Source: Candidatus Omnitrophica bacterium UBA6249 (GTDB taxonomy: Bacteria; Omnitrophota; Gorgyraeia; Gygaellales; Profunditerraquicolaceae). Taken from it: a DNA stretch of 64,000 bases. Where the stretch lies: the NCBI GenBank assembly GCA_002441305.1, contig DJVT01000009.1, forward strand, positions 178,766 through 242,765. Reading direction: 5' to 3'. Below, piece after piece: positions 15,997 through 54,656 of this stretch; positions within the stretch are counted from its first letter, which is position 1; each line of letters begins with the position of its first letter. The translations under genes were made by a program, and so were the position numbers. Below the pieces are notes generated by a model. The model was not told where the DNA came from. It worked only from the letters and a program-made list of their open reading frames with translations, and did not search any database.

Positions 15997-16486
15997 CTAC
16001 CTTTGGCGTTTGCTGATTGCTCTCCCGCACGATTACGCGGTGATGGCCGTAGCCGCCCTCCCGGTCTCGGAATTAAGAGGGTCGATCCCGTTGGCGCTAT
16101 CGCTGGGGATGGGATTTGCCAGGGCATTTTGGCTCTCGGTCGCAGGCAACTGTCTGATCGTCGCTCCTGCGCTTTTTCTTTTGAAACCGGTTACCGCTTC
16201 CCTGAGGAGGTTCAGGTTTTGTTCCGGATTCTTTGATTGGGTATTTGAACGTACCAGAAGAAAAGCAGACATCATACAGCGCTATGAGGCATTGGGGCTT
16301 TTTTTATTCGTGGCCATACCCTTGCCCGTAACCGGGGCCTGGAGCGGGGTAATCGCGGCATCTCTGTTCAAGATACGTTTCCGTTACGCCTTCTTTTCGA
16401 TAATTGCGGGAATATTTTGTGCCGGGATTGTTGTCCTTTCCTTGTGCGCCCTTGGAATATCCGGCTGGAGGGCGGTGTCGGGATGA
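15989..16486 (+). CDS. small multidrug-export-like membrane protein (COG2426-like)
   Basis: 165 aa with 4-5 hydrophobic segments. PVSELRGSIPLALSLG is the motif I associate with this family. Confidence 0.55.
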   Translation: MLDYLWRLLIALPHDYAVMAVAALPVSELRGSIPLALSLGMGFARAFWLSVAGNCLIVAPALFLLKPVTASLRRFRFCSGFFDWVFERTRRKADIIQRYEALGLFLFVAIPLPVTGAWSGVIAASLFKIRFRYAFFSIIAGIFCAGIVVLSLCALGISGWRAVSG

Positions 16487-16986
16487 TCCATATTTATACG
16501 GGAAACGGGAAAGGTAAAACTACGGCGGCGATCGGCCTGGCCGTTAGGGCGGTGGGCGCCGGGCTGAAAGTCTACATGGCGCAGTTTATCAAGGGCCGCC
16601 CTTACAGCGAGCACCGTACTTTAAGCCGAATAAAGAACATAAAAGTAGAGCAGTTCGGCAGGGATTGCTTCATCAGGAAAGACCCCTGCAGCGAAGATAA
16701 GGTCTTGGCGGAAAAAGGGCTTGAGGCGGTTAGGAGGGCGGTCCGGGAAGGCAAATACCGAATGGTGATTATGGATGAGGTGAATGTCGCCCTGAAATTG
16801 AATTTATTCCGCCTGGAGGATCTCTTGCAGGTGGTTGCCTCAGTTCCCCGGAAGACCGAGCTGGTATTAACCGGGCGCTATGCCCCGGCAAAACTTATAA
16901 AATGCGCCGATTTGGTCAGCAGGATCGACGAGGTCAAACATTATTACAGGAAGGGGGTCAAGGCCAGAAAAGGCGTGGAGTTATGA
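16483..16986 (+). CDS. cobO: cob(I)yrinic acid a,c-diamide adenosyltransferase
   Basis: MIHIYTGNGKGKTTAAIGLAVRAVGAGLKVYMAQFIKG...MDEVN...VLTGR. ATGA overlap sets the start at 16483. Confidence 0.9.
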   Translation: MIHIYTGNGKGKTTAAIGLAVRAVGAGLKVYMAQFIKGRPYSEHRTLSRIKNIKVEQFGRDCFIRKDPCSEDKVLAEKGLEAVRRAVREGKYRMVIMDEVNVALKLNLFRLEDLLQVVASVPRKTELVLTGRYAPAKLIKCADLVSRIDEVKHYYRKGVKARKGVEL

Positions 16987-16999
16987 ATTGTTAATTATG

Positions 17000-17027
17000 T
17001 TGACAAAATCACTCCGGATGGTAAATT
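17000..17027 (+). promoter_or_regulatory. promoter candidate for the riboswitch-led operon (TTGACA-N16-TGgTAAATT)
   Basis: TTGACA 17000-17005, then TG 17019-17020 plus TAAATT 17022-17027 (extended -10-like). It lies about 15 nt upstream of the aptamer P1. Confidence 0.4.
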
Positions 17028-17043
17028 AATATAATAATTAGAA

Positions 17044-17201
17044 ATACAGGATCAAGGGAAATCCGTAGGCAAGAAATTGTGAATCGGATGCGGTCCCGCC
17101 GCTGTAACCGGGGACGAAAACCATCAGACCACTGTCTGTTTTTTTAGGATGGGAAGGGATGGTCAGTAGTTTGATCCGGGAGCCAGAAGACCTGCCTGTA
17201 T
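17044..17201 (+). ncRNA. cobalamin (AdoCbl-type) riboswitch aptamer 1
   Basis: P1 pairs ATACAGG 17044-17050 with CCTGTAT 17195-17201. Conserved elements are AAGGGAA 17054-17060, GGTCCCGCCGCTGTAACCGGGG, the B12 box AGACCACTG 17126-17134, GGGAAGG, and GAGCCAGAAGACCTGCC. Confidence 0.85.
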
Positions 17202-17249
17202 ATGCGGAAAATGATTTCCTCGCGGAAGGATTAAGTAAATCAGGGTGCT

Positions 17250-17280
17250 ATCCTTAGGCTTTTTGCTTAAGGATTTTTTT
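17250..17280 (+). terminator. intrinsic terminator (riboswitch 1 expression platform)
   Basis: ATCCTTAGGC 17250-17259 pairs with GCTTAAGGAT 17265-17274 (10 bp, one G-U) around a TTTTT loop. A T6 run follows at 17275-17280. Confidence 0.8.
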
Positions 17281-17297
17281 GTTTCACGGGGGCGTAG

Positions 17298-18101
17298 ATG
17301 GAGACAGGGGCAGTGGGTTTGAGGCGCAGGCTCAAGCTTCCTTTCAGGGTCGGTACCACTTCGTACGTATGGCCGGAAGACATTATCTCAAACGTGCGCA
17401 GGCTGAAAGGGCTTATAGACGACGTTGAACTCGTATTGTTCGAGTCGGAGCAATCCGGCAATATCCCAGCAGAAGAAGAGATGGATGAGCTGAGGAATAT
17501 AGGCGCAGGGTGCGACATGAGTTATACTGTCCATCTGCCTTTGGATTTGAATTTGGGCAGCAGTTTGGCGGAAGAGAGGGCTAAATCAATTTCTTGCATA
17601 AGGTCTATTTCCCAGCAGGTCTGTGCGCTTGCCCCTAAGGCCTACATTCTGCATCTTAACTTGCCGGAAAGCTCTCCGCGGGATATCCCGGCATGGCAGG
17701 AATATGCCGGTATTTCGCTTAAAGAAATAGCCGCAGGTAATATAATCGCTCCTGTTAAGGTAGCGGTTGAGAATTTAAGCTATCCTTTCGATTATATCGG
17801 CGGGCAAGTTCTGGAGAGCGGTTTTTCCGTATGCGCCGATATAGGGCATCTTTTGGTTATGGGGCTGGATCCGCTGGCGCACCTGGAAAAGTATTTTGAG
17901 AGCATTGCGGTAATCCATCTTCACGGGGTGAACGGGGCAAAAGACCATGTTTCCCTGAAATACCTCAATCAGGGGATGTTAAAGGATATAGCGGATTTTC
18001 TTATGCGCAGAGGGTATGCCGGAGTATTGACTTTGGAGGTGTTCGCGCAGAGCGATTTCGAAGAGTCCATGGAGATACTATGGGAAAGCTTATATTTATA
18101 A
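17298..18101 (+). CDS. cbiR: xylose-isomerase-like/AP-endonuclease-2 TIM-barrel protein; candidate cobamide-remodelling phosphodiesterase CbiR
   Basis: 267 aa. It is the first gene after the riboswitch and overlaps cobU by 22 nt. FRVGTTSYVWPEDIISNVRRL...DDVELVLFES and later HLHG/HL motifs fit the TIM-barrel superfamily. The CbiR assignment rests on context plus published knowledge. Confidence 0.6.
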   Translation: METGAVGLRRRLKLPFRVGTTSYVWPEDIISNVRRLKGLIDDVELVLFESEQSGNIPAEEEMDELRNIGAGCDMSYTVHLPLDLNLGSSLAEERAKSISCIRSISQQVCALAPKAYILHLNLPESSPRDIPAWQEYAGISLKEIAAGNIIAPVKVAVENLSYPFDYIGGQVLESGFSVCADIGHLLVMGLDPLAHLEKYFESIAVIHLHGVNGAKDHVSLKYLNQGMLKDIADFLMRRGYAGVLTLEVFAQSDFEESMEILWESLYL

Positions 18102-18610
18102 CCGGGGGGTCACGCAGCGGAAAGAGCTCCCTTGCCGTAAAGATTGCCTCGAAGATAAAGAAGAAAAAAGTGTTTATCGCAACTTGCATTCCGCAAGACA
18201 GGGAGATGAAGGAACGCGTAAGGCTGCATCGTCTAAACAGGCCGTCTTCCTGGAAGACTATAGAGCCTTCACCGGACCTGCTTTGCCTGTTAAGCCGGGA
18301 AACGAAAGAAAACTGCGTGTTGATTATCGACTGCCTTACCTTGTTTGTCTCCGGGCTGCTCATGCGCAAGAGGAAAGAGGAGGCAATTAAATCAGAGGTA
18401 AAAAAGGTAGCGGAGACGATCAAGAAGGGTAAGGCGACGGCGGTCATTGTTTCTAACGAGGTTGGCTGCGGACTGGTGCCGGAAAATAGGCTTGGCAGGT
18501 TATTCAGGGATATCGCCGGTTCATGCAACCAGGATATCGCCGGGTACGCCGATGAGGTTTTTTACATGGTTGCCGGTATTCCCATAAAGATAAAAGGAGG
18601 GCCCAGATGA
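18080..18610 (+). CDS. cobU: adenosylcobinamide kinase / adenosylcobinamide-phosphate guanylyltransferase
   Basis: MGKLIFITGGSRSGKSSLA P-loop; 176 aa; SNEVGCGLVPEN motif. Confidence 0.9.
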   Translation: MGKLIFITGGSRSGKSSLAVKIASKIKKKKVFIATCIPQDREMKERVRLHRLNRPSSWKTIEPSPDLLCLLSRETKENCVLIIDCLTLFVSGLLMRKRKEEAIKSEVKKVAETIKKGKATAVIVSNEVGCGLVPENRLGRLFRDIAGSCNQDIAGYADEVFYMVAGIPIKIKGGPR

Positions 18611-19671
18611 ATTGGCGGCAAGAACTGCTTCCTTCTATCCTGCCTTTGGATGAGGGCGCCATGCTTGAGGCCCAAAGAAGGCTGGATAGCCTGACTAAGC
18701 CCAAACATAGCCTTGGCAGGTTGGAGGATTTTGCAAAGAAGACCGCAGGGATTACCGGAAATCCCAGGCCCTGCATAAAAAACAAGGTTATATTCACTAT
18801 GGCCGGAGACCATGGAGTGGCAAGCGAAGGGGTGAGTCTTTTTCCGCAGGAGGTAACCGGGCAGATGATTTATAATTTCCTGGAAGGCGGTGCCGGGGTC
18901 AATGTGCTTGCCAGGCATACTGGCGCGCGGGTGGTTATCGCCGATATTGGATGCATCGAGAACATAAAGACCGGGAACGTGAATTTTATAGATAAGAAGA
19001 TAGCGCGCGGTACCGGGAATATCGCCGAGGGCCCGGCGATGAGCGAAGAGCAGGCAATAGCTTCTTTGCGCGCAGGCATGGGAATATTCGGAGGCGAATA
19101 TGCCAGTGGGAAGATAGATATAGCCGGATTGGGAGAAATGGGCATAGCAAATACTACTTCGGCAAGCGCGATAACCTGCTGTATTACCGGGGCAAAAGCG
19201 GAAGACGTGACCGGAAGAGGCACCGGCATAGATGATCAAAGGCTGAAATTGAAGACCGATGCAGTCAAGAAAGCGGTCAGGGTGAACAACCCTGACCCGC
19301 ATGATCCTCTCGATGTCTTGAAGAAATTAGGGGGATTCGAGATAGGGGCTTTGGCGGGGATAATCATTGCCGGGGCGGCAAAAAGGGTCCCTGTGGTGAT
19401 CGATGGGTTTATCACGGCGAGCGCAGCGCTGATTGCCACGCAGATATCACCCTTGTCCCGGGATTATCTTTTTGCCAGCCATGATTCCGTGGAAAAAGGG
19501 CATGCCGTAGCATTGAAATGGATGGGTCTGGAACCCATGTTCGATTTACAGATGCGCCTGGGAGAGGGGACCGGGGCTTGTATCGGGATCAGCCTTATAG
19601 AGGCAGGAACGAGGGTATTGAACGAAATGGCGACTTTTGACGGGGCGGGCATCTCCCGGGAGAAAGAATGA
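18607..19671 (+). CDS. cobT: nicotinate-nucleotide--dimethylbenzimidazole phosphoribosyltransferase
   Basis: 354 aa with LTKPKHSLGRLEDFA, GEMGIANTT and MRLGEGTGA. ATGA overlap with cobU. Confidence 0.9.
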   Translation: MNWRQELLPSILPLDEGAMLEAQRRLDSLTKPKHSLGRLEDFAKKTAGITGNPRPCIKNKVIFTMAGDHGVASEGVSLFPQEVTGQMIYNFLEGGAGVNVLARHTGARVVIADIGCIENIKTGNVNFIDKKIARGTGNIAEGPAMSEEQAIASLRAGMGIFGGEYASGKIDIAGLGEMGIANTTSASAITCCITGAKAEDVTGRGTGIDDQRLKLKTDAVKKAVRVNNPDPHDPLDVLKKLGGFEIGALAGIIIAGAAKRVPVVIDGFITASAALIATQISPLSRDYLFASHDSVEKGHAVALKWMGLEPMFDLQMRLGEGTGACIGISLIEAGTRVLNEMATFDGAGISREKE

Positions 19672-20414
19672 TTATTCTGAAAAGGATTCTTTCTGCGGTA
19701 ACTTTTCTTACCGTGCTTCCTTTTTCTGGCAAAGGGGAAGCAGATCCGCGTGAGCTCGGGAAAGCGATGGGGTTTTTCCCTTTAGCCGGCTTGTTTATAG
19801 GCCTTATCCTGGCTTGCGCGTACGCGCTTTCGTCCTTGTTTTTTTCTCCCCTGTTTGTTTCTGTGCTGGTAATAGTTTTGTGGGCCTTTCTCTCCGGCTT
19901 GCTGCATCTGGAAGGTTTTGTCGATGCCGCCGACGGTTTCAGCGCCGGCTGCGGAAGGGAGAAGACGCTTGAAATAATGAAAGACCACCATTGCGGGGCA
20001 AAGGGTGTTATTCTCCTTGTCCTGCTTATCGTCTCGAAGATAGCCGTTTTTAATGAGACGCCGGACTCTTTGCGTATTACCGCCCTGCTTTTAGCCCCGG
20101 TTGCGGGAAGGTGGGCGATGGTATGCGCTGCCTGTTTGTGCCCTTACGCCAGGAAGACAGGGGGGTTTGGCAGGGTATTTGTGGAGAACTGCGGTAAAAG
20201 GGAGCTTTTTTTATCGAGCTTTATATTCGTTTTCACAGCCTCATTCCTGCTCCGTCTTGAGGTTTTTATCTGGATTATGCCTTTTTTATTCTTTGTATTT
20301 ATTTCTTTATTCTGGTTGAACAGGAGAATCGGGGGGGTTACCGGGGATATCTTAGGGGCTCTGAATGAAGTAAGCGAGCTGGTCTGCCTTTCCATTTTCC
20401 TGCTTATGAGATGA
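19668..20414 (+). CDS. cobS: adenosylcobinamide-GDP ribazoletransferase (cobalamin synthase)
   Basis: 248 aa polytopic membrane protein with LTVLPF, HLEGFVDAADG and GGVTGDILGA motifs. Confidence 0.9.
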   Translation: MIILKRILSAVTFLTVLPFSGKGEADPRELGKAMGFFPLAGLFIGLILACAYALSSLFFSPLFVSVLVIVLWAFLSGLLHLEGFVDAADGFSAGCGREKTLEIMKDHHCGAKGVILLVLLIVSKIAVFNETPDSLRITALLLAPVAGRWAMVCAACLCPYARKTGGFGRVFVENCGKRELFLSSFIFVFTASFLLRLEVFIWIMPFLFFVFISLFWLNRRIGGVTGDILGALNEVSELVCLSIFLLMR

Positions 20415-21502
20415 AGTTTATTCCGGGGGCCTTAGTGCACGGAGGGGATCTTAAATGGGCTTCCCGGGCCTTCGGGATCAGGGAAAAAGGTATCGTCGAT
20501 TTCAGCTCAAATGTGAATGTCCGCCCTGTTCCCGCGGCGGTAGTTAAAGCCGTAGGTAAAAGCTTGAACGGGATAGCGAGATACCCGGATGCAAGATGTT
20601 CAAAGTTACTGGGCGTATTAAGCAGGCGCCTGGGTGTAGAGGAAGGGCATATTGCCGCGGGGAACGGTTCGGCGGAGATTATCCACCGGCTGGTCAGGGC
20701 TTTTCGTATAAAGTCGGCTGTTGTGATTATGCCAGCTTTTGGAGAATATGGTAAGGCGCTTTTGGAAGCAGGAGCCAGGGTTAGGCCATTTTTCACCAGG
20801 GAACGAAACCGGTTTGTGCCGGATATAAAAGAGATTGCAGAGAAAATTCCATCATGTACAGATGCTTTGTTTTTCTGCAACCCCAACAATCCTACCGGAG
20901 TATTAACTCCGAAAGAGGACATTGAGTCTCTTGTCGCTGTTCTGAGGCGCAAGAAGACGATATTAGTCCTGGATGAAGCTTTTATTGACCTCGAGGAGGA
21001 GGAAAGCCTGGTTAAGAGCGCCCCGGGCGCTGGCAATCTCCTGGTACTGCGTTCGATGACCAAGTTTTTTGGCCTGGCGGGGTTGAGGTTGGGTTATGCC
21101 GTAGGCAGCCTGGCGATGATAAAAAGCCTGCGTGATTTTGGCCAGCCATGGCCGGTGAATGTATTCGCGCAGGCAGCCGGAGAGGCGGTCTTGAAGGAAA
21201 GAAGTTTTTGTGTTTTGAGCAGAAGAGAAATTATCGAAGAACGCGATTTCCTGTATGAGAGGCTCATTATGGCAAGAGGCGTAAGGCCTTTTCCTTCCCG
21301 GGCGAATTTTATAATGTTGAAGATAGAAAACGGAATTTCTTCCGGCATGCTGCAAAGACTCTTGGCAAAAAGAGGCCTGTTGATAAGGGACTGCGCGGAT
21401 TTTCCCGGATTAAGCGATAAATATTGCAGAATAGCGGTAAGGGGGCGTGCCGATAATTTACGCCTGCTCCGGGAATTGGATATTATTTTAAGGCAGGGTT
21501 AA
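20411..21502 (+). CDS. cobD: L-threonine-O-3-phosphate decarboxylase (class I/II aminotransferase fold)
   Basis: 363 aa with HGGDL...IVDFSSNVN, NPNNPTG and SMTKFFGLAGLRLGY. Confidence 0.85.
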   Translation: MKFIPGALVHGGDLKWASRAFGIREKGIVDFSSNVNVRPVPAAVVKAVGKSLNGIARYPDARCSKLLGVLSRRLGVEEGHIAAGNGSAEIIHRLVRAFRIKSAVVIMPAFGEYGKALLEAGARVRPFFTRERNRFVPDIKEIAEKIPSCTDALFFCNPNNPTGVLTPKEDIESLVAVLRRKKTILVLDEAFIDLEEEESLVKSAPGAGNLLVLRSMTKFFGLAGLRLGYAVGSLAMIKSLRDFGQPWPVNVFAQAAGEAVLKERSFCVLSRREIIEERDFLYERLIMARGVRPFPSRANFIMLKIENGISSGMLQRLLAKRGLLIRDCADFPGLSDKYCRIAVRGRADNLRLLRELDIILRQG

Positions 21503-21503
21503 T

Positions 21504-22997
21504 ATGGTTATCCAGGTATGCGGCACCGGTTCGGGAGTCGGTAAAAGCGTAATCGTTTCTGCTTTATGCCGTATTTTTCTGCAGGATGGCTTACGCCCTT
21601 GTCCTTTCAAGGCGCAGAACATGGCTTTGAATTCATTCGTTACCGCCGATGGTAAAGAAATGGGCCGGGCTCAGGCGGTACAGGCTCAGGCAGCAGGACT
21701 TGTGCCTTGCGCGGATATGAATCCCATATTGCTCAAGCCGATGTCGGACAGAAGGGCACAGGTAGTGGTAAGCGGTATTCCCGCGCGGAACATGTCGGTT
21801 TATGAGTACGTGCGCTATAAGAAGACAGCGGAAAGTATAGTTTTGTCCTCTTTCCGGCACCTGTCCGGGCAGTACGATACGATGGTTATCGAAGGGGCCG
21901 GATCTCCGGCCGAGATCAACCTGAGCTCTCATGATATTGTGAATATACGCATGGCAATGCGCGTTCATTCACCGGTTATCCTGGTGGGGGATATTGATAA
22001 AGGGGGAGTTTTTGCCTGGCTTTCCGGCACGCTTGATTTGCTAAAACCGGAAGAGAAAAAAACGGTCAAGGGTTTTATTATCAATAAGTTCAGGGGGGAT
22101 AAAAGGCTGCTTAAGCCGGGGTTAGATTTCCTTGAGAGAAAAACCGGGGTTAGAGTATTGGGCGTAATTCCGTATTTTAAGGATATAAAGATTCCCGAGG
22201 AAGACTCCGTGCCGCTTGAAAAACAGGCGTATGCGGAAAGAGGCGGCGGTGCAGTGGACATAGCGGTAATTAACCTTCCGCATATATCGAACTTTACCGA
22301 TTTTGACCCATTGGAGAATGAACCGGACGTCAGTCTGCGTTATGTGGGGTGCGGAGATGATCTTGGTAGGCCGGATGTAATCATTATCCCCGGAAGCAAG
22401 AGTACGATCTCTGATTTGGATTATCTAAAAAAGACCGGGATGGCGGGTAGGATAGCGGAAGCGTTTGAAAGGAACCGGGATCTTGTGCTCGTCGGCGTCT
22501 GCGGGGGATACCAGATGCTGGGGAGGCGGATATACGACCGTAAGTCGGTGGAGTCAAAAAGGAGAATGAGCGGAGGGCTGGGGTTTTTGCCCGTAGTTAC
22601 ATATTTTGACGGTAATAAGACGCTTGCGCAGGTATCTGGGGAGGAGGTTTCTACCGGATTAAAGGTGCGTGGTTATGAGATACACCACGGCAAGAGTGTT
22701 ATTTCAGGAAAAAAGGCGGCTCCTGTTTTTAAGGTTGGGGGATGCAGGGGAGAGGGAATTCGTTTTGACGGCGCAGGCCTGGAAGGAGGCAGGGTCTGGG
22801 GTACTTATATCCACGGTCTTTTTGACTCCGGAGGATTCCGCAGGGATTTTCTTAACCGGGTCAGGGCGAGGATGGGTTTTTCTTCGTTAAAACCGGTGTC
22901 GCAAGATGCAGAAAATGAGTTTGATAAGCTCGCTTTTCTGGTAAGAAGGAATATCAAAATGGATTTGTTATACAGTATTATGGAGGCGGGATTGTGA
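21504..22997 (+). CDS. cobQ: cobyric acid synthase
   Basis: 497 aa. CGTGSGVGKS, FKAQNMALNS and EGAGSPAEINL, with a C-terminal GATase domain (GVCGGYQMLG, YEIHHG). Confidence 0.9.
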   Translation: MVIQVCGTGSGVGKSVIVSALCRIFLQDGLRPCPFKAQNMALNSFVTADGKEMGRAQAVQAQAAGLVPCADMNPILLKPMSDRRAQVVVSGIPARNMSVYEYVRYKKTAESIVLSSFRHLSGQYDTMVIEGAGSPAEINLSSHDIVNIRMAMRVHSPVILVGDIDKGGVFAWLSGTLDLLKPEEKKTVKGFIINKFRGDKRLLKPGLDFLERKTGVRVLGVIPYFKDIKIPEEDSVPLEKQAYAERGGGAVDIAVINLPHISNFTDFDPLENEPDVSLRYVGCGDDLGRPDVIIIPGSKSTISDLDYLKKTGMAGRIAEAFERNRDLVLVGVCGGYQMLGRRIYDRKSVESKRRMSGGLGFLPVVTYFDGNKTLAQVSGEEVSTGLKVRGYEIHHGKSVISGKKAAPVFKVGGCRGEGIRFDGAGLEGGRVWGTYIHGLFDSGGFRRDFLNRVRARMGFSSLKPVSQDAENEFDKLAFLVRRNIKMDLLYSIMEAGL

Positions 22998-24822: not shown

Positions 24823-24823
24823 G

Positions 24824-25825
24824 ATGGACAGGAAGATAAACAGGCTGGTTTTAGTATTATCGGTTTTAGCGGCAATGCTTTTTTGCGCGGCGGTCTTTTC
24901 GCTTTGCGTGGGTTCTGCGGGAATCCCTTTAAAAAGGGTGTTCCAGTTATTTTTCGAAGGCAGAGGCAGTACGGAATACAATATTGTTTTTGACATACGT
25001 TTCCCGCGTATCCTGCTCGGGTTTGCCGTAGGCGGAGCCCTGGCCCTGGCAGGCGTTATTCTCCAGGGGGTCTTCCGTAACCCGCTGGTTGAGCCGTATA
25101 CTTTGGGTGTTTCCGGCGGGGCGGCGTTAGGCGCGTCTTTGAATATTGTATTCAAACTGTACAGGAGCAGCGTGTTGACTCTTCCCTTGTTCGGTTTTAT
25201 CGGGGCGTTCTTTATTATAATCGTACTTTACCTGCTCAATATGAGGAAGGGAACGATAAAACTGCAGTGGCTGCTTCTTAACGGGGTGATGATAAGCTTC
25301 ATATCCTCTTCATTGATTATGCTGATTATGTCTTTATCCCGCGCGGAGGATATGCACGGGATAATCTTCTGGATAATGGGGTCTTTGGACGAACCTAATT
25401 GGTTTATTATCAAGGTTACCGTGGTCATGTCGATAGCGCTTCTTGCCGTATCGTATTTATTTTGTCTGGATCTTAACGCTTTTTCCCTGGGGGAAGAGGA
25501 GGCGATGCATTTGGGGGTACGCACGGAAAAAAGCAAGAGGATGCTTTTTATCGCCGCTTCATTGCTTACGGGTCTGAGTGTCGCCGTGGCGGGAATGATC
25601 GGTTTCGTGGGGCTGGTGGTCCCGCATTTTGTAAAGATGCTTACTGGAGGCGATCATAGGGTATTGATCCCCGCTTCTTTTCTTTCGGGAGGGATATTCC
25701 TGATTTTCTGCGATACCCTGGCAAGAGTGGTAATTGCCCCGATGGAGCTTCCGGTCGGCGTGATTACCGGGATACTGGGGGGAAGTTTTTTTGTTTATGC
25801 CCTGGCCAAAAGAAGAAGCGTATGA
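24824..25825 (+). CDS. btuC: FecCD-family ABC permease (B12 import)
   Basis: About 333 aa from ATG 24824. Contains RFPRILLGFAVGGALALAG, EPYTLGVSGGA and GFVGLVVPH motifs. Confidence 0.85.
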   Translation: MDRKINRLVLVLSVLAAMLFCAAVFSLCVGSAGIPLKRVFQLFFEGRGSTEYNIVFDIRFPRILLGFAVGGALALAGVILQGVFRNPLVEPYTLGVSGGAALGASLNIVFKLYRSSVLTLPLFGFIGAFFIIIVLYLLNMRKGTIKLQWLLLNGVMISFISSSLIMLIMSLSRAEDMHGIIFWIMGSLDEPNWFIIKVTVVMSIALLAVSYLFCLDLNAFSLGEEEAMHLGVRTEKSKRMLFIAASLLTGLSVAVAGMIGFVGLVVPHFVKMLTGGDHRVLIPASFLSGGIFLIFCDTLARVVIAPMELPVGVITGILGGSFFVYALAKRRSV

Positions 25826-25835
25826 TGAGGCAAGA

Positions 25836-26660
25836 ATGTTAAAAGTAGAGAACCTGATTTGCGGTTATGAGAAGAAGGCTATACTTTCCGATGTTTCTTT
25901 CCAGGTGGACAAGGGCGAATTCGTGGGGATCATTGGTCCGAACGGTTCGGGTAAGACTACTCTTTTGCGCGCTCTGTCAAGGATAATTGAGCCTTCCGGG
26001 GGGATGATCAGTTTGTACGGAAAGGATATGCGCCAGATTCACCCAAAGCTGCTGGCCAGGAGTGTTTCCGTAGTTTCGCAGAATATATCCCCGGAGAACT
26101 TTACGGTGGAGGAATTTGTTTCCCTGGGGAGGCTGCCTTATTACGGGGCTTTCCAGTTTTTCGGTACGAAAAAAGATTATCAGGCGGTGCATGCGGCCAT
26201 GGAATTAACCGGGGTGGAGGCGCTGGGAGAGCGTTTTCTGGAGAAGATGAGCGGCGGGGAAAAACAGCTTGTATTTATTGCGCGGGCGTTGGCCCAGGAG
26301 CCGGAGCTTATCCTTCTTGATGAGCCGACCGCGCATCTGGATATCGCCCATCAGGTGAATATTATGGATTTGATCAGAAAGCTGAATAGGGACTTCGGGC
26401 TTACTGTGGTAATGGTGCTACATGATTTGAACTTGGCAGGAGAGTATTGCCATAAGCTCCTTCTGGTAAACAACGGCTCGATACATAAAATAGGGCAGCC
26501 TAGGGAGATACTGAACTACCGGGATATCGAAGAGGTTTACGGCACAAGGGTGGTCGTTGTGGAGAACCCCGTTTCAGGCAAGCCTTATGTAGTACTGGTT
26601 CCCGGAGAGTGCAGAGAAGAAGAACAGGCGCAGGGGCATAAAAAAGGAGGCGGGAATTGA
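25836..26660 (+). CDS. btuD: ABC transporter ATP-binding protein (B12 import)
   Basis: Walker A GPNGSGKTT, signature MSGGEKQ, Walker B LILLDEPTAHLD. Start is at ATG 25836 (MLKVENL). Confidence 0.85.
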   Translation: MLKVENLICGYEKKAILSDVSFQVDKGEFVGIIGPNGSGKTTLLRALSRIIEPSGGMISLYGKDMRQIHPKLLARSVSVVSQNISPENFTVEEFVSLGRLPYYGAFQFFGTKKDYQAVHAAMELTGVEALGERFLEKMSGGEKQLVFIARALAQEPELILLDEPTAHLDIAHQVNIMDLIRKLNRDFGLTVVMVLHDLNLAGEYCHKLLLVNNGSIHKIGQPREILNYRDIEEVYGTRVVVVENPVSGKPYVVLVPGECREEEQAQGHKKGGGN

Positions 26661-27115
26661 TAAGAAGAAGTCAAGTTATAGCGGTTTTAATTTTTTGTGT
26701 TATATCGGCGGTTGCTGCAGCATTTTATGCGGCGGGAATCCGGCATGCGGATAAAGGTGGAAAAAGATATGAGGTAAGCGTGGAGATAGATTATGGCGGC
26801 AGGCTTCCTTTTCGGAAAGCGGAGGTTGTTTTGCCTGAAGGCGGCAGCGTTCTGACGGCCCTACAGTCCGTAGCCGACGTAGGGACGCACCGTGCGGGAG
26901 GGTATGTTTTTGTCGTCTCCGTAGACGGAGTGGAGGGCGTGCGTGGGGAAAATGCCTGGTATTATACGATAGACGGGGAGAACCCGGAGGAATTGGCGTA
27001 TTCGAAGGTTATCGCAGCGCCGGCGCATATAAAATGGTCTTATCAAAAAGATGTATGTTCGGGAAGAGTTGACAATGAAAATGAAGTATCAGCCGGGAAG
27101 GAGGAAGGTAAATAA
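26657..27115 (+). CDS. membrane-anchored DUF4430-like (transcobalamin beta-domain-like) protein
   Basis: 152 aa with one N-terminal TM helix, then SVLTALQSVA...VVSVDGVEG...NAWYYTIDGENPE...IKWSY. TTG start overlaps the btuD stop, with an AAGGAGG SD 6 nt upstream. Confidence 0.6.
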   Translation: MIRRSQVIAVLIFCVISAVAAAFYAAGIRHADKGGKRYEVSVEIDYGGRLPFRKAEVVLPEGGSVLTALQSVADVGTHRAGGYVFVVSVDGVEGVRGENAWYYTIDGENPEELAYSKVIAAPAHIKWSYQKDVCSGRVDNENEVSAGKEEGK

Positions 27116-27163
27116 TAAAAGGCACTTAGAGAGGCAAGAAGCGTATTATAAACATTATTATTT

Positions 27164-27292
27164 CCGGATAAGCAAAGGAAGTGAAGGTGCATTGTTTCTT
27201 TAGCAAGGATTCCTTCCGCTGCCCCGCAACGGTAATGAAAAACGGCATTTGATACTGCTGGTTTTTACGAGCCCGGACGATTGTTTATCCAG
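27164..27292 (+). ncRNA. cobalamin riboswitch aptamer 2
   Basis: P1 candidate pairs GGATAA 27166-27171 with TTATCC 27285-27290. Also present are AAAGGAAGTGAAGGTGCA, GCTGCCCCGCAACGGTAA 27218-27235 (strong match to the conserved core), a B12-box variant GATACTGCTGG, and GAGCCCGGACGATTG. Confidence 0.7.
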
Positions 27293-27341
27293 GGAATCCC
27301 GCTTAAATATTCTGCGGGCAGTATTCTCGAGGGAGGAGAAG

Positions 27342-29288
27342 ATGGCAAGAAAGATTCAGGTTTTTCTAATAGTTATGTTTTTTTGTATGATGGGTTTATC
27401 TCGGGCGGATGAGCCTGCGCAGGGAGGTAGCGCGGCCCAGGGTGAAGAAACCGTGGCTGTTTCCGGAGGGGAAGCCCAGTATGACCTGGGAAAAGTGATA
27501 GTTTCTGCGACCAAGACGGAAACTTACCAGGCAGAGATCGGGAGCTCCACTACTGTAATTACCGCTGATGATATAGAGAAATCCGGAAAGCGTACAGTTG
27601 AAGAGGTCTTGCGTAATGTCCCTGGACTTACCGTGATGCAGACTGGGGCTATAGGAGGAGCGGTTTCCGTATTTATGCGCGGGGCTAATTCCGGGCAGAC
27701 CCTGGTGATGATCGATGGAGTTGAGGTGAACGATCCGATGGCCACCGATCGCTCGTTTGATTTTGCCAATCTTGTTACAGATAATATCGAGAGGATAGAG
27801 ATTGTGCGCGGGCCGCAGTCAACGCTTTACGGTTCGGACGCAATGGCCGGCGTAATCAATATTATTACCAAAAAAGGAACCGGCAGGCCAAAATTCGAAG
27901 GTTCTTTTGAAGGAGGCTCGCATAGTACCTTCAACGAGAGCCTGGGGTTCAGCGGTACGGCTATGGAGAAGTTGGATTATTCGTTTTCAGTGGCACGCCT
28001 GGATTCGGAAGGTATATCTACAATATCCGGCACGGAAGACGATCCCTACCATAACCTTTCGCTTTCTTCGAAGGTGGGGTATAAAGTTTTCGATAACGCG
28101 GAGTTGAACCTGGTGGTGCATTATACGGATGCGAGAAAATCAATCGATGATTCCGACACTTCTACCTATGCGCCCATCGATATGCCCAACTATACATCCT
28201 GGTCGAAGGATTTGGCAAGCAAGGTTTCCTTTGATCAATCCATCAACTCTTGGTGGACACATAACCTGTCTTTTTCTTACCATGATATGCGCCGAAAAGA
28301 CAGGAAAGATTGGGATCCTCATAACCAAACCGTGATCGGTGATTGGTATAAGGGGAACAACAAGAAGGTGGAGTGGCAGCATACTCTTTCTCCGGTAAAA
28401 TGGAATACTGTTACCGCAGGTTTTGAATACGAGAAAGAAAGCGGTTCATCTCTTTACAGCGTTACTCCTGATCCCTACTTTTCTTCAAGCAAACAGGATA
28501 GGAAAAGTATTGATAACTGTGGATATTATTTTCAGGATCAGCTCAAAATCTGGGATAGCCTTTTTATCACTCCCGGATTGAGGATTGATGATCATGAGAT
28601 ATTCGGAACGGAGACTACCTATAAAGTATCAGCTGCCTACCTTATTAGGCAAACCGGTACTCGTCTTAAGGCCAACTGGGGCACGGGTTTTAAAGCTCCT
28701 TCCCTGTTTCAGCTGTATTCGACATATGGTTCGCCGGATTTAAGCCCCGAGAAAAACAAAAGTTATGATATCGGGTTTGAACAGAGTTTGTTTTCCGACT
28801 GTTTATCGTTTGACCTGACGTATTTTCATAACAAATATAGCAATCTCGTAGATTATAATTATTCTACAAGTAAGTATTATAACGTCGGGAAAGCGAAGAC
28901 CAAAGGTGTCGAATTAGGGGCAACATTAAAGCCTTTGGATAATTTGACCTTGAGCGGTAATTTCACTTATACTAAGACTGAAGATAAAGAAACAGGGCGG
29001 GAGCTTCAGAGGCGTCCGGAAAGACAGTTCAATTTTGATGTGAACTGGGCTTTTCTGCCTAAGGCAAACCTGAATTTTGGGGCAAATTATGTAGGCAGCC
29101 GTAAAGATTCGGGCTATATCACGGATAAGGCGTATACTGTTTTCCGTCTCGCCGCTTTATACAATGTTACGGAAAATCTCCAGGTTTTTGGCAGGATCGA
29201 AAACCTTTTCGACAAGAAATACCAGGAGGTTTATAGTTATGAAACTTTGGGCCGTTCATTCTATGCCGGCTTGAAGGCAAAGTTCTAA
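27342..29288 (+). CDS. btuB: TonB-dependent outer-membrane receptor (BtuB-like)
   Basis: Signal peptide MARKIQVFLIVMFFCMMGLSRA, TonB box/plug (VIVSATKTE, IERIEIVRGPQSTLYGSDAMAGVINIITK), and a C-terminal ...SFYAGLKAKF beta-barrel terminus. The real start at 27342 follows GGGAGGAG. Confidence 0.9.
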   Translation: MARKIQVFLIVMFFCMMGLSRADEPAQGGSAAQGEETVAVSGGEAQYDLGKVIVSATKTETYQAEIGSSTTVITADDIEKSGKRTVEEVLRNVPGLTVMQTGAIGGAVSVFMRGANSGQTLVMIDGVEVNDPMATDRSFDFANLVTDNIERIEIVRGPQSTLYGSDAMAGVINIITKKGTGRPKFEGSFEGGSHSTFNESLGFSGTAMEKLDYSFSVARLDSEGISTISGTEDDPYHNLSLSSKVGYKVFDNAELNLVVHYTDARKSIDDSDTSTYAPIDMPNYTSWSKDLASKVSFDQSINSWWTHNLSFSYHDMRRKDRKDWDPHNQTVIGDWYKGNNKKVEWQHTLSPVKWNTVTAGFEYEKESGSSLYSVTPDPYFSSSKQDRKSIDNCGYYFQDQLKIWDSLFITPGLRIDDHEIFGTETTYKVSAAYLIRQTGTRLKANWGTGFKAPSLFQLYSTYGSPDLSPEKNKSYDIGFEQSLFSDCLSFDLTYFHNKYSNLVDYNYSTSKYYNVGKAKTKGVELGATLKPLDNLTLSGNFTYTKTEDKETGRELQRRPERQFNFDVNWAFLPKANLNFGANYVGSRKDSGYITDKAYTVFRLAALYNVTENLQVFGRIENLFDKKYQEVYSYETLGRSFYAGLKAKF

Positions 29289-29349
29289 GACATGAAACGG
29301 AGGCGGGGCGTATGCCCCGCCTCCTGCCACTCAAATAAAGAGGAGAGAA

Positions 29350-29943
29350 ATGTTCAACTTATTTCTAAAGGGCGGACCGCTGATGTGGCCGATATTGCTC
29401 TGTTCCCTGGTATCGGTAACGATTGTCCTGGAGCGGTATTATTATTTCTACCGCCTGCGTGGCAGGATCCCTAATATTTGCCCGAGGGTAAAACTGCTTT
29501 TAAAAGAAGGCAGGGAAGATGAGGCGGTAAGATTGTGCGAGCAGGACGGCGGCCCGGTAGGGCGTATCCTGGCGATAAGCGCGCATATCCGCCATAAGCC
29601 GGCAGAAGAGCGGGAAAAATTAATCTCCCGGGCAGGCTCTAAGATTGTCCGCCAGATGGAGCAATACCTGCGCGCCCTTGCGGTAATCGTGAATACCGCT
29701 ACTCTTTTGGGGCTGTTGGGTACGGTTACCGGGATGATCAAGGCCTTTATGAAGATCCAGGAACTGGGGGGGAGAGTGGATGCTTCGGTGCTGGCGGGGG
29801 GCATCTGGGAAGCGTTGATCACTACTGCCGCAGGGCTATTCGTTGCCATACCTACCATGCTTTTTTACCATTATTTCGAAAGTAAGGTGGATAATACTGC
29901 GGATTCGATGAAAGAAGCGGCGATGGAATTTCTGGAGGGATGA
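29350..29943 (+). CDS. exbB: MotA/TolQ/ExbB proton-channel protein
   Basis: 197 aa with GGPLMWPILLCS and LLGLLGTVTGMIKAF. Confidence 0.9.
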   Translation: MFNLFLKGGPLMWPILLCSLVSVTIVLERYYYFYRLRGRIPNICPRVKLLLKEGREDEAVRLCEQDGGPVGRILAISAHIRHKPAEEREKLISRAGSKIVRQMEQYLRALAVIVNTATLLGLLGTVTGMIKAFMKIQELGGRVDASVLAGGIWEALITTAAGLFVAIPTMLFYHYFESKVDNTADSMKEAAMEFLEG

Positions 29944-30356
29944 TGGAATTCGAAGCAAGGAAGAAAATAAGTACGGAGATGAATATTGCTCCTTTGATCG
30001 ACGTAATTTTCCTGCTTATTCTGTTTTTTATGCTTACCGCCAACTTCGTTATTCCCCCGGGGATAAAACTCGATTTGCCCAGCGTGCTTTCCGCAAAGCC
30101 CCAAGAGGAGGAAAACACGGTTGTTTCGGTAACCCGGGACGGTGGGCTGTTCCTGAATGATAAAGGTATTTCCGGGCAGGAGCTTCCCGGAGCATTGAAG
30201 AGAGAACTGGAAGGCGCGAAAAACAAGACGGTAGTGATCCGGGCGGATGAAAATGTCAATTTCGGACTTGCGGTGGATGTTCTGGATATGGCCAAACAGG
30301 CTTCAGCAGAGGGCGTGGTCATCTCGACCACTAAAAAGGAAAATGCCGGGAAATAA
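29940..30356 (+). CDS. exbD: ExbD/TolR biopolymer transport protein
   Basis: 138 aa with MNIAPLIDVIFLLILFFM. ATGA overlap with exbB. Confidence 0.9.
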   Translation: MMEFEARKKISTEMNIAPLIDVIFLLILFFMLTANFVIPPGIKLDLPSVLSAKPQEEENTVVSVTRDGGLFLNDKGISGQELPGALKRELEGAKNKTVVIRADENVNFGLAVDVLDMAKQASAEGVVISTTKKENAGK

Positions 30357-31026
30357 TCCTATCAAATTCGCTTTCTTGATTTCTTTTGCCGGCCACTGTG
30401 TGTTTCTGGGAGCGGGAAATTCAGGTCTGCCGGTTTTCCGGAAGAGAGACCAGCCTAAGGAGATAGAGGTCGAATTCGATATCCGCAGGGAGGCTCTCCT
30501 GCCGAAAGTGGATCTCATGGGACCGGAGAAGAAATTCAAGCCGATGGAGGAGAAACAGGCGGCCGCCCCGGAGAAACATGAGGCGCCGCCCGAGGAAAAA
30601 CAAGCGGAGCCTTTGAAACCGGCGGCGGAAGAAAAGACGGAGAAGAAGATTCAAGAGAAGAAGCCTGAATCCTTACCCGGTAGGGAGCATTCGCTGGAGC
30701 AGGAAAAGGTAGATACCCTCCTTTCCGACCGGGAGATCATGATGCGTTACCAGGATATGGTAAAGCAGAGGATTGAGGCAGTGAGGAGGTATCCTCTGTG
30801 GGCCAGGAAACATGGCGTAGATGGGGTAAGCCGGGTATCTTTTAAGGTTTTTCCTCAAGGAGAAGCGGGAGCGGTACGCTTATCTGTTTCTTCCGGCTCG
30901 AAGATACTCGACGATGAATCAATTTCTACCGTCAGGAGGGCAAGCCCTTTTCCTCCGGTTCCCGGAGAGTTTTCCGGCAGGGCCGTGGATATGGAAGTGT
31001 CCATAGTTTTTTCTCTGGAAGAATGA
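30343..31026 (+). CDS. tonB: TonB family energy transducer
   Basis: N-terminal anchor, E/K/P-rich linker, and a TonB C-terminal domain (YPLWARKHGVDGVSRVSFKV...ASPFPPVP). ATG 30343 overlaps the exbD end. Confidence 0.85.
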   Translation: MPGNNPIKFAFLISFAGHCVFLGAGNSGLPVFRKRDQPKEIEVEFDIRREALLPKVDLMGPEKKFKPMEEKQAAAPEKHEAPPEEKQAEPLKPAAEEKTEKKIQEKKPESLPGREHSLEQEKVDTLLSDREIMMRYQDMVKQRIEAVRRYPLWARKHGVDGVSRVSFKVFPQGEAGAVRLSVSSGSKILDDESISTVRRASPFPPVPGEFSGRAVDMEVSIVFSLEE

Positions 31027-31067
31027 AAAATGTTTCAACCTCGCCGGCTTTGTGATAGACTGCTATC

Positions 31068-31769
31068 ATGCGCCCGGAAAGACTTATACGTTTTACTTTT
31101 GTAGTTTCCTTATTTTCGCACGGGTTGTTCCTTATACAGGGGCCGGAAATAAACCCGCTTACCCCTCCTCCTAAAGAACAGCTGATAAAGGTGCGCTATC
31201 TTGACCGCAGGGAACTTGTCTCCAGGACTTCTGCTGATAAGGCCGCCCCCCGTAAAACCTTTTCTTCCCCCCGGGCCGAGGCTTTTATGCAGCCTTCAGG
31301 AAAAGCCTCCAGGGGTATCCCCTTGACGCCTCCTGTCGAGAAAAAGTTCTTGAGAGACCCGGGAATCCTGCCTTCAGGCAAGGCGCCGGATTTCGCCAAG
31401 CCTAATTTTTCCAGCCCCGCGATGATTTCGATAAGAAAAAGAGTCACCCTTCCCGAAATCGAGATACCTAAAATAGATAATCCGAGCTATATCAGTTATT
31501 ACCAGATAGTCCGGGAAAAGATACGAAGGAGCGCATATAAGAACTACACGCGCAACGAGATCGGAGAAGTTTATATCTCTTTTGTTATATCCAATGACGG
31601 GGATATCAGGGACATCCGCCTTATAGAACCCAAGACTTCTGCCAGCGATTACCTGAAAGGCATAGCTTCAAGAAGTGTTAAGGACGCTTCGCCTTTTCCC
31701 AGTTTCCCCAAGGAATTGGATTATCCGCAGCTATCTTTTAATATAGTGATATCTTTTGAGCTTGAATAG
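31068..31769 (+). CDS. second TonB-C-terminal-domain protein
   Basis: 233 aa with an N-terminal anchor (FTFVVSLFSHGLFLI), a proline-containing linker, and C-terminal GEVYISFVISNDGDI...ASPFPSFP. Confidence 0.75.
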   Translation: MRPERLIRFTFVVSLFSHGLFLIQGPEINPLTPPPKEQLIKVRYLDRRELVSRTSADKAAPRKTFSSPRAEAFMQPSGKASRGIPLTPPVEKKFLRDPGILPSGKAPDFAKPNFSSPAMISIRKRVTLPEIEIPKIDNPSYISYYQIVREKIRRSAYKNYTRNEIGEVYISFVISNDGDIRDIRLIEPKTSASDYLKGIASRSVKDASPFPSFPKELDYPQLSFNIVISFELE

Positions 31770-31781
31770 CCAATCCAGTTA

Positions 31782-31810
31782 TTGACACCCTTGTTAAAGA
31801 GTGATATATT
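31782..31810 (+). promoter_or_regulatory. sigma-70-type promoter (TTGACA-N17-TATATT with TGa extended -10)
   Basis: TTGACA 31782-31787, a 17-nt spacer ending GTGA, then TATATT 31805-31810. It lies about 38 nt upstream of rpsU. Confidence 0.55.
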
Positions 31811-31847
31811 AACAGTTTAATATTGTTTATGAAAGGAGATGATTATA

Positions 31848-32009
31848 TTGTCACAGGTAGAAGTCAAAAAAGACGAGTCTTTTGAGTCCGCCCTGCGCCG
31901 TTTCAAGAAGAAAATCGAGCAGGAAGGCATCCTGCGCGAAGTGCGGGACCGCAAACATTACGAAAAACCCAGCGAGCGCAAGAGAAAGAAAGCGAAATCC
32001 AGAAAGTAA
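31848..32009 (+). CDS. rpsU: 30S ribosomal protein S21
   Basis: [52 protein letters not shown]. Not in the ORF track (under 60 aa). TTG 31848 lies 9 nt after the AAAGGAG SD; the in-frame ATG at 31839 is an alternative. Confidence 0.85.
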
Positions 32010-54632: not shown

Positions 54633-54656
54633 ATATCAACAATAACGGAGGGTTTG

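Follow-up and report, generated by a model that had tools for sequence, protein, structure and literature searches.

A predicted CbiR-type corrinoid acquisition island led by two differently built cobalamin riboswitches in a Candidatus Omnitrophota bacterium

Introduction

The cobamide-remodeling phosphodiesterase CbiR was found in Akkermansia muciniphila MucT (Amuc_1679), in which it converts adenosylcobalamin to adenosylcobinamide-phosphate (AdoCbi-P) and alpha-ribazole (Mok et al. 2020, mBio; PMC7733943). MucT is a non-producer, and its cbiR locus comprises cobDQ and cbiB, along with cobT, cobS, cobU and transport genes (PMC7733943). We have studied a stretch of 64,000 nt, hereafter the window, from contig DJVT01000009.1 (assembly GCA_002441305.1) of Candidatus Omnitrophica bacterium UBA6249, in which an island at positions 16483-31769 very probably constitutes a CbiR-type corrinoid acquisition system with two-tiered riboswitch regulation. 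The island is the same kind of locus as that of MucT: both hosts belong to the PVC group, and the same chemistry would be expected, namely the conversion of cobamides to AdoCbi-P and an alpha-riboside and their rebuilding by CobU, CobT and CobS. The two loci differ in that cobD and cobQ are separate genes in the window but form a cobDQ fusion in MucT, and in that the operon in the window additionally carries btuFCD and a gene for a transcobalamin-like protein, followed by a second riboswitch with btuB-exbBD-tonB-tonB.

Another route of remodeling, through CbiZ, operates in Rhodobacter sphaeroides and Dehalococcoides mccartyi; this amidohydrolase yields cobyric acid, so that CbiB and CobD are needed (PMC7733943, PMC6461909). 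CbiZ and CbiR systems serve the same purpose, in that an unsuitable lower ligand is removed and the cobamide is rebuilt, and both are often linked to transport; CbiR, however, cuts the phosphodiester to give cobinamide-phosphate (Cbi-P). In Escherichia coli and Salmonella, the translation of btuB is under a cobalamin riboswitch in which the ribosome-binding site (RBS) takes part. These enterobacteria have the same parts list for uptake and loop assembly (a btuB riboswitch, BtuB-TonB-ExbBD, BtuFCD, cobUST, cobC and btuR/cobA), but their parts are scattered and TonB-ExbBD is shared and iron-regulated, whereas all parts in the window are contiguous, with an ExbBD and two TonB paralogs of their own. 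E. coli lacks CbiR, CobQ, CobD and CbiB, while the window lacks cobC.

The B12 uptake loci of Bacteroides carry a surface B12-binding accessory protein, BtuG (Wexler et al. 2018, as cited in PMC7733943). These loci resemble the island in combining a riboswitch-controlled btuB locus with an extra corrinoid binder other than BtuF, which in the window is a predicted one. Unlike the window, they have neither salvage enzymes nor a TonB module. BtuG is presumably a surface lipoprotein of a fold unrelated to the protein of the domain of unknown function DUF4430 described below.

Members of Candidatus Omnitrophota are for the most part ultra-small and uncultured, and little is known about the nutrients on which they depend. 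The island would extend CbiR-type remodeling, with a full envelope-to-cytoplasm uptake route, to this group. According to Seymour et al. (2023, PMC10066038), the biosynthesis of cobalamin is "present but not universal" among Omnitrophota. Omnitrophota are not in Table S1 of CbiR-bearing taxa (PMC7733943), and the taxon is therefore new to the literature searchable here, though already in databases. The locus offers a compact set of parts, comprising two differently built riboswitches, a CbiR homolog, a transcobalamin-like predicted binder and a private TonB system. It is nevertheless of little surprise, since every part comes from a described family, the layout mirrors the Akkermansia locus and the NCBI pipeline already names the key gene. 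In this study we determined the gene identities, established the two RNA elements and how far they are conserved, and determined which fold the DUF4430 protein has; from characterized families we infer how the enzymes would work together.

Gene content of the island

The island consists of seventeen contiguous plus-strand genes interrupted by two structured RNA leaders. Gene boundaries and Pfam matches were taken from public gene calls on an identical contig, which span positions 1-63708 of the window and ~5.5 kb of its 5' flank. The twelve genes that precede the second leader are as follows, with profile scores in bits.

16483-16986, plus strand: cobO, corrinoid adenosyltransferase (NF004637, 191.4 bits, cut-off 185; Pfam CobA_CobO_BtuR)
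17298-18101, plus strand: cbiR, cobamide-remodeling phosphodiesterase with an AP endonuclease 2 TIM barrel (NF041277, 252.1 bits, cut-off 105)
18080-18610, plus strand: cobU, adenosylcobinamide kinase/Cbi-P guanylyltransferase (NF004469, 188.5 bits, cut-off 161)
18607-19671, plus strand: cobT, lower-ligand phosphoribosyltransferase (TIGR03160, 421 bits, cut-off 319)
19668-20414, plus strand: cobS, cobamide synthase (adenosylcobinamide-GDP ribazoletransferase; TIGR00317, 141.3 bits, cut-off 110)
20411-21502, plus strand: cobD, L-threonine-O-3-phosphate decarboxylase, source of the aminopropanol-phosphate linker (TIGR01140, 309.4 bits, cut-off 290.55)
21504-22997, plus strand: cobQ/cbiP, cobyric acid synthase for amidation of side chains b, d, e and g (NF001989, 612 bits, cut-off 273)
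22994-23944, plus strand: cbiB, adenosylcobinamide-phosphate synthase (TIGR00380, 225.9 bits, cut-off 165.9)
23941-24822, plus strand: btuF-like periplasmic substrate-binding protein (PF01497, 116 bits; NF002894, 104 bits, below the cut-off of 234)
24824-25825, plus strand: btuC-like ABC permease of the FecCD family (NF007081, 258 bits, below the cut-off of 461; PF01032)
25797-26660, plus strand: btuD-like ABC ATPase (NF007082, corrinoid ABC transporter ATPase, 243 bits, below the cut-off of 537; PF00005)
26657-27115, plus strand: DUF4430 protein (PF14478, 29.3 bits, cut-off 23.8)

In the profile search, the late-pathway enzymes (CobO, CbiR, CobU, CobT, CobS, CobD, CobQ and CbiB) scored above their equivalog cut-offs, and the transport proteins were recognizable only at the family level. 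All seventeen genes named in an earlier note on this DNA were recovered in their places on the plus strand, and the gene set supports the identity that the note gave to the island, one of cobamide salvage, remodeling and import. The same note had left cobO outside riboswitch control, and this was borne out: cobO closes the upstream operon, shares 4 nt with the PF06695 gene before it and is under neither riboswitch. From cbiR to the DUF4430 gene, eleven genes form a chain whose junctions, counted from the public starts, measure -22, -4, -4, -4, +1, -4, -4, +1, -29 and -4 nt. The spacings noted earlier were nearly exact, except that the largest overlap had been put at 22 nt and is in fact the 29 nt between btuC and btuD.

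CbiR

The match of the CbiR protein to NF041277, at equivalog level, covers positions 1-247 of the 249 in the profile, and the protein also matches PF01261 (50.9 bits). Across 12 CbiR sequences of 37-100% identity (that of the window and 11 homologs), H79, H119, E158, D181, H184, H207, H209, D216, H217 and E247 are invariant; the order of these ten His, Asp and Glu positions presumably resembles the metal-ligand order of endonuclease IV. By family membership and by analogy with the MucT enzyme, the window CbiR is predicted to cleave cobamides to AdoCbi-P and an alpha-riboside. Its gene is the first of the operon behind riboswitch 1 and overlaps cobU by 22 nt.

The family is large, with 2680 homologs at E <= 1e-10, and near-identical proteins are labeled "cobamide remodeling phosphodiesterase CbiR" by PGAP in NCBI metagenome-assembled genomes (MAGs) tagged Candidatus Omnitrophota/Omnitrophica. 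Proteins of the window recur, in exact or near-exact form, in several such MAGs and on a 474-kb ENA contig. Among GTDB species representatives, searched with patterns derived from the window CbiR alone, the sole match was a MAG designated "uncultured Planctomycetales bacterium", whose CbiR is 58% identical and whose truncated contig has the same gene order upstream. A search of the PDB returned only weak matches to uncharacterized TIM barrels, with no solved CbiR among them.

A second AP_endonuc_2 gene, at 32012-32926, was considered as a CbiR paralog and rejected, as it reached 20.6 bits against the cut-off of 105 and aligned over 80 residues only. It stands right after rpsU (31839-32009) with a promoter-like site of its own ahead, is syntenic in relatives at 50-62% identity and is not part of the island.

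Riboswitch 1

The leader of the eleven-gene chain comprises three features.

17000-17027, plus strand: promoter-like TTGACA-16-TAAATT with a TG extension, 3 nt 5' of riboswitch 1 (a consensus match only)
17031-17213, plus strand: riboswitch 1, a full-length cobalamin aptamer with a P6 extension and a canonical B12 box (RF00174, 82.7 bits, E 7e-19, model positions 1-189)
17250-17285, plus strand: intrinsic terminator of riboswitch 1, a 10-bp stem (17250-17274) and then TTTTTTTGTTT

The RF00174 scan of this site passes the Rfam gathering score of 31.5 bits, in agreement with the earlier placement of a riboswitch and a terminator ahead of the chain. The T-run of the terminator stops 13 nt ahead of the cbiR ATG. 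Since the aptamer has a promoter-like site before it and a hairpin with a T-run after it, riboswitch 1 is likely to act as a transcription attenuator; as a class-I-type element, it would attenuate the eleven genes for salvage and ABC import at the level of transcription.

Riboswitch 2 and control of btuB

A second and differently built RNA leader lies between the DUF4430 gene and btuB.

27153-27302, plus strand: riboswitch 2, a short cobalamin aptamer without a P6 extension (class-II-like) and with lineage-specific insertions (RF00174, 27.8 bits)
27324-27344, plus strand: expression platform of riboswitch 2, the hairpin UUCUC-GAGGGAG-GAGAA holding the Shine-Dalgarno sequence GGAGGAG (local fold; conserved in 14 loci)

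The earlier note had placed a riboswitch ahead of btuB-exbB-exbD-tonB-tonB and expected an RF00174 match at 27120-27345. The element is where it was expected and is supported by its orthologs and by covariation, but its score in the window stays below the gathering threshold (27.8 versus 31.5 bits), at which it is not reported. A sensitive scan of 601 bases gave an E of 3.7e-5 with 50 model positions, those of the P6 extension, deleted, and RF00174 was the sole credible family match at the site. The window copy scores lower than its orthologs on account of additional hairpins in P6, in the P4 loop and ahead of the platform.

With the receptor protein as a query, we gathered 16 related metagenome loci (66-77% identity), 14 of which include the region of riboswitch 2. 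The element lies directly 5' of btuB in each of these 14, and the orthologs in L016, L018, L019, L021, L022 and L024 pass the gathering score with 31.6-38.1 bits. When the 14 sequences were aligned and the structure was predicted from this same alignment, 99.2% of the cells of its 35 pairs were paired and 5 pairs had compensatory changes on both sides; none of 500 shuffles matched this covariation, and slid controls were 40-60% paired. The single-sequence fold was no different from shuffles (z -0.99). On the comparative data, that is, the same element before btuB in 14 loci, six scores above the threshold and the compensatory changes, we judge riboswitch 2 to be real despite its sub-threshold score. 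The Rfam threshold thus misses a short btuB riboswitch in this Omnitrophota lineage.

The aptamer ends 40 nt before the btuB ATG (27342). The platform hairpin occupies 27324-27340 and ends 1 nt before this start codon (1-6 nt in the aligned loci), and an additional hairpin specific to the window (27298-27318) stands between the aptamer and the platform. The platform loop GAGGGAG is complementary to L5 (GCCCCGC) of the riboswitch, and both loops are invariant. Because the RBS is held in a hairpin whose loop is complementary to L5, riboswitch 2 seems to act at the level of btuB translation, which it would repress by stabilizing the RBS-holding hairpin through a ligand-stabilized kissing loop, as in short cobalamin riboswitches. 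Class-II cobalamin riboswitches, such as the env8 metagenomic aptamer, have no P6 extension and a Shine-Dalgarno hairpin that kisses L5. Riboswitch 2 is like them in the lack of a P6 extension, the conserved core and a Shine-Dalgarno hairpin that might kiss L5, and unlike them in that it is filed marginally under RF00174 and in the extra insertions of the window copy, which lie in P6, in the P4 loop and ahead of the platform hairpin.

The btuB-exbB-exbD-tonB-tonB module

Riboswitch 2 is followed by a receptor gene, a hairpin and four genes of an energizing module.

27342-29288, plus strand: btuB-like TonB-dependent outer-membrane receptor with plug and barrel Pfam domains (TIGR01779, TonB-B12, 328.7 bits, below the cut-off of 599.7; NF007926, 278.9 bits, below the cut-off of 836)
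29299-29324, plus strand: GC-rich 11-bp intercistronic hairpin between btuB and exbB (no U-run in the window)
29350-29943, plus strand: exbB, MotA/TolQ/ExbB proton channel (PF01618, 107.8 bits)
29943-30356, plus strand: exbD (PF02472, 100.4 bits)
30343-31026, plus strand: tonB copy 1, with an SxxxH anchor (ISFAGH), a Pro/Glu/Lys-rich linker and TonB_C (TIGR01352, 44.5 bits, cut-off 27.1)
31068-31769, plus strand: tonB-like copy 2, with an SxxxH anchor (VSLFSH) and a divergent C-terminal domain (TIGR01352, 25.6 bits, cut-off 27.1; PF13103, 21.3 bits, just below the cut-off of 22)

The two TonB proteins are paralogs (26% identity, E 1e-7), and copy 2 is kept after copy 1 in 10 related loci. The order btuB-exbB-exbD-tonB is intact in every related locus that reaches that far. 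A strong, GC-rich hairpin between btuB and exbB is present at the same place in all 15 loci compared (the window, L012-L018, L020-L025 and L027), with differing stem sequences; only a few of these hairpins are followed by a T-run, and the 67-nt spacer of the window folds at about -29 kcal/mol. The hairpin is probably a terminator, an attenuator or an mRNA stabilizer that sets the ratio of btuB to exbBD-tonB. Given this hairpin and the translational nature of riboswitch 2, control of exbBD-tonB by B12 may be regarded as plausible. The proposal that a TonB module is kept inside the regulon therefore stands as to its conserved adjacency to btuB, while its co-regulation is only inferred, with the conserved hairpin intervening.

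The DUF4430 protein has a transcobalamin-like fold

An AlphaFold model of the DUF4430 protein, based on eight sequences, had a mean pLDDT of 77.9, with 10-residue block means of 85-95 for residues 41-130. It comprises an N-terminal membrane helix and a beta-grasp, transcobalamin-beta-like (SLBB) domain. In a fold search, 17 of the 19 best PDB matches were beta-domain chains of transcobalamin, intrinsic factor or haptocorrin, and the other two belonged to 3u7z, which comes from structural genomics of Ruminococcus gnavus and carries the annotation of a putative metal-binding protein. The Foldseek E values of these matches were 1e-6 to 5e-5, with an rmsd of about 1.8-3 A for most; 2bb6, 4kki, 3kq4 and 5no0 matched at E 1e-6 with a TM of 0.75 when normalized to the isolated beta domain. 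A sequence search against the PDB gave no match, and the likeness is seen by the fold search only.

Five related loci have the gene in the same position, with btuD/cobO on one side and riboswitch 2 on the other. Burroughs, Iyer and Aravind (2007; PMC1796856) described a "transcobalamin-like" SLBB clade of bacteria, widely represented, including in planctomycetes, and predicted B12 binding for it. The DUF4430 protein shares its fold with this clade and with the beta domain of transcobalamin and intrinsic factor (5no0, 5np4), at a Foldseek E of 1e-6 and an rmsd of 1.8-2.7 A, and its B12-uptake neighborhood fits the 2007 prediction. Unlike transcobalamin, it has just one domain, carried on a membrane helix, and lacks the alpha-toroid that completes the animal binding site. 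The natural reading of the model is that of a predicted corrinoid binder on the periplasmic face.

Operon variation among related loci

The 16 related loci, as well as L028 and L030, keep riboswitch 2-btuB-exbB-exbD-tonB-tonB and a riboswitch-led salvage operon, whose content varies. Some relatives have btuFCD-cobC-cobUTS-(Dph6-like)-cbiR only; cobQ, cbiB and cobD are absent from the ~10 kb fetched to either side. Others have cbiR-cobUTS-cobD-(CbiJ-like)-cobQ-cbiB-(Dph6-like)-btuFCD-cobO-DUF4430. In some, the gene 5' of riboswitch 2 is cbiR instead of the DUF4430 gene, and the element is still attached to btuB. A cobC-like gene stands between btuD and cobU in three relatives (L018 899-1483, L020 5865-6464 and L026 5936-6535); that of L020, the sole one scored, reached 144 bits with TIGR03162 against a cut-off of 163.

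Several further genes occur in the operons of relatives. A lone CbiJ/CobK-like gene lies between cobD and cobQ in L024 (2263-3012), L028 (10001-10750) and L030 (10001-10774); it matches PF02571 at 126 bits and TIGR00715 at 118 bits, below the cut-off of 129.85, and has ~27 close homologs. No further corrin-ring gene was found within 10 kb on either side of it. With the L024 protein as a query, no named homolog had an accession from the MAGs that hold the window proteins, which is a weak negative.

Most relatives include, within their riboswitch-controlled B12 operons, a gene for a Dph6-like PP-loop ATP pyrophosphatase (PF01902, 175-187 bits), for example at L015 7582-8256, L024 5465-6142, L023 5540-6307, L028 13203-13880 and L030 13210-13857, either before cbiR or after cbiB. 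The family is that of diphthine-ammonia ligase, and to our knowledge it has no function in B12 metabolism; the protein could perform an ATP-dependent amidation of a corrinoid carboxylate. The operons of two relatives contain a CbpB radical SAM/SPASM gene ("rSAM_cobopep", TIGR04163, 671-681 bits) between cobD and cobQ or btuF. The region lies at L021 6378-7802 and at L023 4083-5468 and 2802-3734, and L023 also has an asparagine-synthase-like gene.

The PF06695 gene ("small multidrug export", 15989-16486) that stands 5' of cobO in the window is paired with cobO in L007, L015 and L022 as well. Its product may take part in corrinoid handling as a membrane partner, or the pairing may be mere conserved synteny. 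In L018, a group I intron (RF00028, 95 bits) at 16146-16343 lies between tRNA matches at 15735-15807 and 16468-16538.

Proposed route of corrinoid acquisition

By analogy with characterized families, corrinoids would pass the outer membrane by way of the BtuB-like receptor, energized by the adjoining ExbB-ExbD and the two TonB paralogs. In the periplasm, the membrane-anchored DUF4430 protein and the BtuF-like protein would hold them, and BtuCD would import them. CobO, expressed outside riboswitch control, would adenosylate the corrinoids in the cytoplasm, where CbiR would cleave complete but unsuitable cobamides to AdoCbi-P and an alpha-riboside. CobU would convert cobinamide or Cbi-P to Cbi-GDP, CobT would produce the preferred alpha-ribotide, and CobS would join the two, with the final dephosphorylation left to a phosphatase encoded outside the window. 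CobQ, CobD and CbiB would also finish earlier intermediates, so that Cbi-P could be reached from cobyrinic acid a,c-diamide or from cobyric acid.

Cbi-P, the product of CbiR, requires no more than CobU, CobT, CobS and a phosphatase, and there must therefore be another input that CobQ, CobD and CbiB serve. From the known pathway, this input would most simply be cobyric acid or less-amidated corrinoids from the community. The presence of cobQ without cbiA had been called unusual for a salvager; the comparison speaks otherwise, as the CbiR locus of the non-producer MucT has cobDQ and cbiB, and five related Omnitrophota loci carry cobQ, in a comparable setting (L012, L014, L021, L024/L028 and L030).

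Several observations weigh against the proposed system. As cobC is absent from the window, the last dephosphorylation has no assigned enzyme, and some related loci have a cobC-like gene inside the operon where the window has none. A His_Phos_1 gene at 54654-55406 was examined as a candidate cobC and rejected, since it is GpmA (440 bits, cut-off 305, versus 62.8 bits for the cobC model). No L-threonine kinase that would make the CobD substrate was found in the window. The names BtuB, BtuF, BtuC and BtuD rest on gene context, their scores being below the equivalog cut-offs. Riboswitch 2 falls short of the gathering score, and the kissing of L5 and L13 has no support from covariation, as both loops are invariant, and the loop is shortened in L014, L015 and L022. 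Finally, transcripts of btuB may stop at the conserved hairpin that lies ahead of exbB.

Producer or scavenger, and other explanations

The earlier note reported no ring-synthesis genes in the island, which holds for the entire 64-kb window too: no CbiA(a,c), CbiC, CbiD, CbiE, CbiF, CbiG, CbiH, CbiJ, CbiK, CbiL or CbiT, no chelatase and no CbiZ were found among the Pfam-annotated gene calls at 1-63708 and in the ~5.5 kb of 5' flank, a search that took in ~70 kb of one 474-kb contig. CobU, CobT and CobS, all above their cut-offs, supply the nucleotide-loop part of the cobinamide-salvager genome category, in which nucleotide-loop assembly genes are present and all or most corrin-ring genes are lacking (Shelton et al. 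2019, PMC6461909). Scavenger status nonetheless cannot be shown by a 64-kb window alone, because CbiR islands occur in de novo Akkermansia strains and synthesis is patchy in Omnitrophota; the view that such an island implies auxotrophy is an over-reading, which the present comparison corrects. The island might instead be the late half of a complete de novo pathway, with its ring genes elsewhere and with uptake and remodeling as accessories, as in de novo Akkermansia. CobQ, CobD and CbiB are indeed de novo enzymes, full-length and above their cut-offs, some relatives have a CbiJ-like gene between cobD and cobQ, and part of Omnitrophota synthesizes cobalamin (PMC10066038), just as CbiR is found in all 75 A. 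muciniphila strains examined, 26 of them with the de novo pathway (PMC7733943). The surroundings of these genes tell against such a producer. No ring gene accompanies them in the 64 kb and the flank, and they share an operon with an ABC importer, a remodeling enzyme and a predicted B12 binder beside a riboswitch-led receptor, as in the non-producer MucT; several relatives lack cobQ, cbiB and cobD within the stretches fetched; and the CbiJ-like gene of others stands without another ring gene and has homologs that are not tied to MAGs with the window proteins, which is weak evidence. We consider a complete pathway somewhat unlikely and a true non-producer the likelier state of this organism, with a good deal of doubt left.

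As to the regulation, the two riboswitches could be redundant sensors of the same ligand, with riboswitch 2 merely fine-tuning a transcript that reads through from the promoter of riboswitch 1. Between the DUF4430 stop (27115) and riboswitch 2 there is no terminator-like site, and no good sigma-70-type promoter of its own was found at 27100-27160, where only a -10-like TATTAT (27144-27149) is present. Relatives, however, keep a -10-like TATAAT ~10-40 nt before the aptamer, and riboswitch 2 stays with btuB even where cbiR replaces the DUF4430 gene upstream. The aptamers differ as well, one with and one without the P6 extension, as do the platforms, a terminator and an RBS hairpin, and redundancy is thus unlikely in our estimation. 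It is very improbable that btuB-exbB-exbD-tonB-tonB is a general or iron/heme TonB system merely beside a B12 operon and that the element ahead of it is not a working riboswitch. The receptor does score 328.7 bits against a cut-off of 599.7 and is matched by heme and siderophore receptor models too, riboswitch 2 is under the gathering score in the window and a conserved hairpin parts btuB from exbB; yet TonB-B12 is the top receptor model, at 329 bits against 198 for the next family, the element precedes btuB in 14 of 14 orthologous loci, with six scores above the threshold and compensatory changes, and the RBS-holding hairpin adjoins the btuB start codon in every locus.

A bolder version of the CbiR-type acquisition system, which we regard as unlikely, is a deep salvage in which labor is divided between two sensors, the DUF4430 protein is a chaperone, and CobQ, CobD and CbiB complete under-amidated corrinoids. 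If it were true, riboswitch 1 would report the finished adenosyl-cobamide of the cytoplasm and shut off remodeling and ABC import, whereas riboswitch 2, with a different selectivity (e.g., for incomplete, non-adenosylated or base-off corrinoids), would by itself adjust the gate in the outer membrane. The DUF4430 protein would then be a previously uncharacterized bacterial periplasmic corrinoid chaperone, and an ultra-small, possibly host-dependent cell would finish under-amidated corrinoids leaked by its neighbors. In that case, the CbiJ-like reductase, the Dph6-like amidoligase and CbpB of sister lineages would hint at undescribed corrinoid repair chemistry.

Genomic surroundings

On its 5' side, the island is preceded by ribosomal-protein operons, central metabolism and lipid genes, and the window starts within the spc/alpha ribosomal-protein operons. 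On the 3' side follow rpsU, EF-P, acetyl-CoA carboxylase subunits, thiamine genes and others. A promoter-like TTGACA-17-TATATT with a TG (31782-31810), which with 11 of 12 matches is the best in the region, lies between the second tonB and rpsU and is the 3' border of the island. The thiamine cluster, at ~39986-42780, encodes ThiD2, TMP-TENI and ThiC by Pfam, and no TPP riboswitch was detected in the whole window at the Rfam gathering score. Nearly all genes in positions 1-64000 are on the plus strand, the GC skew is positive in each 4-kb bin and the cumulative skew climbs steadily; this skew and strand bias place the window on the leading strand of one replichore.

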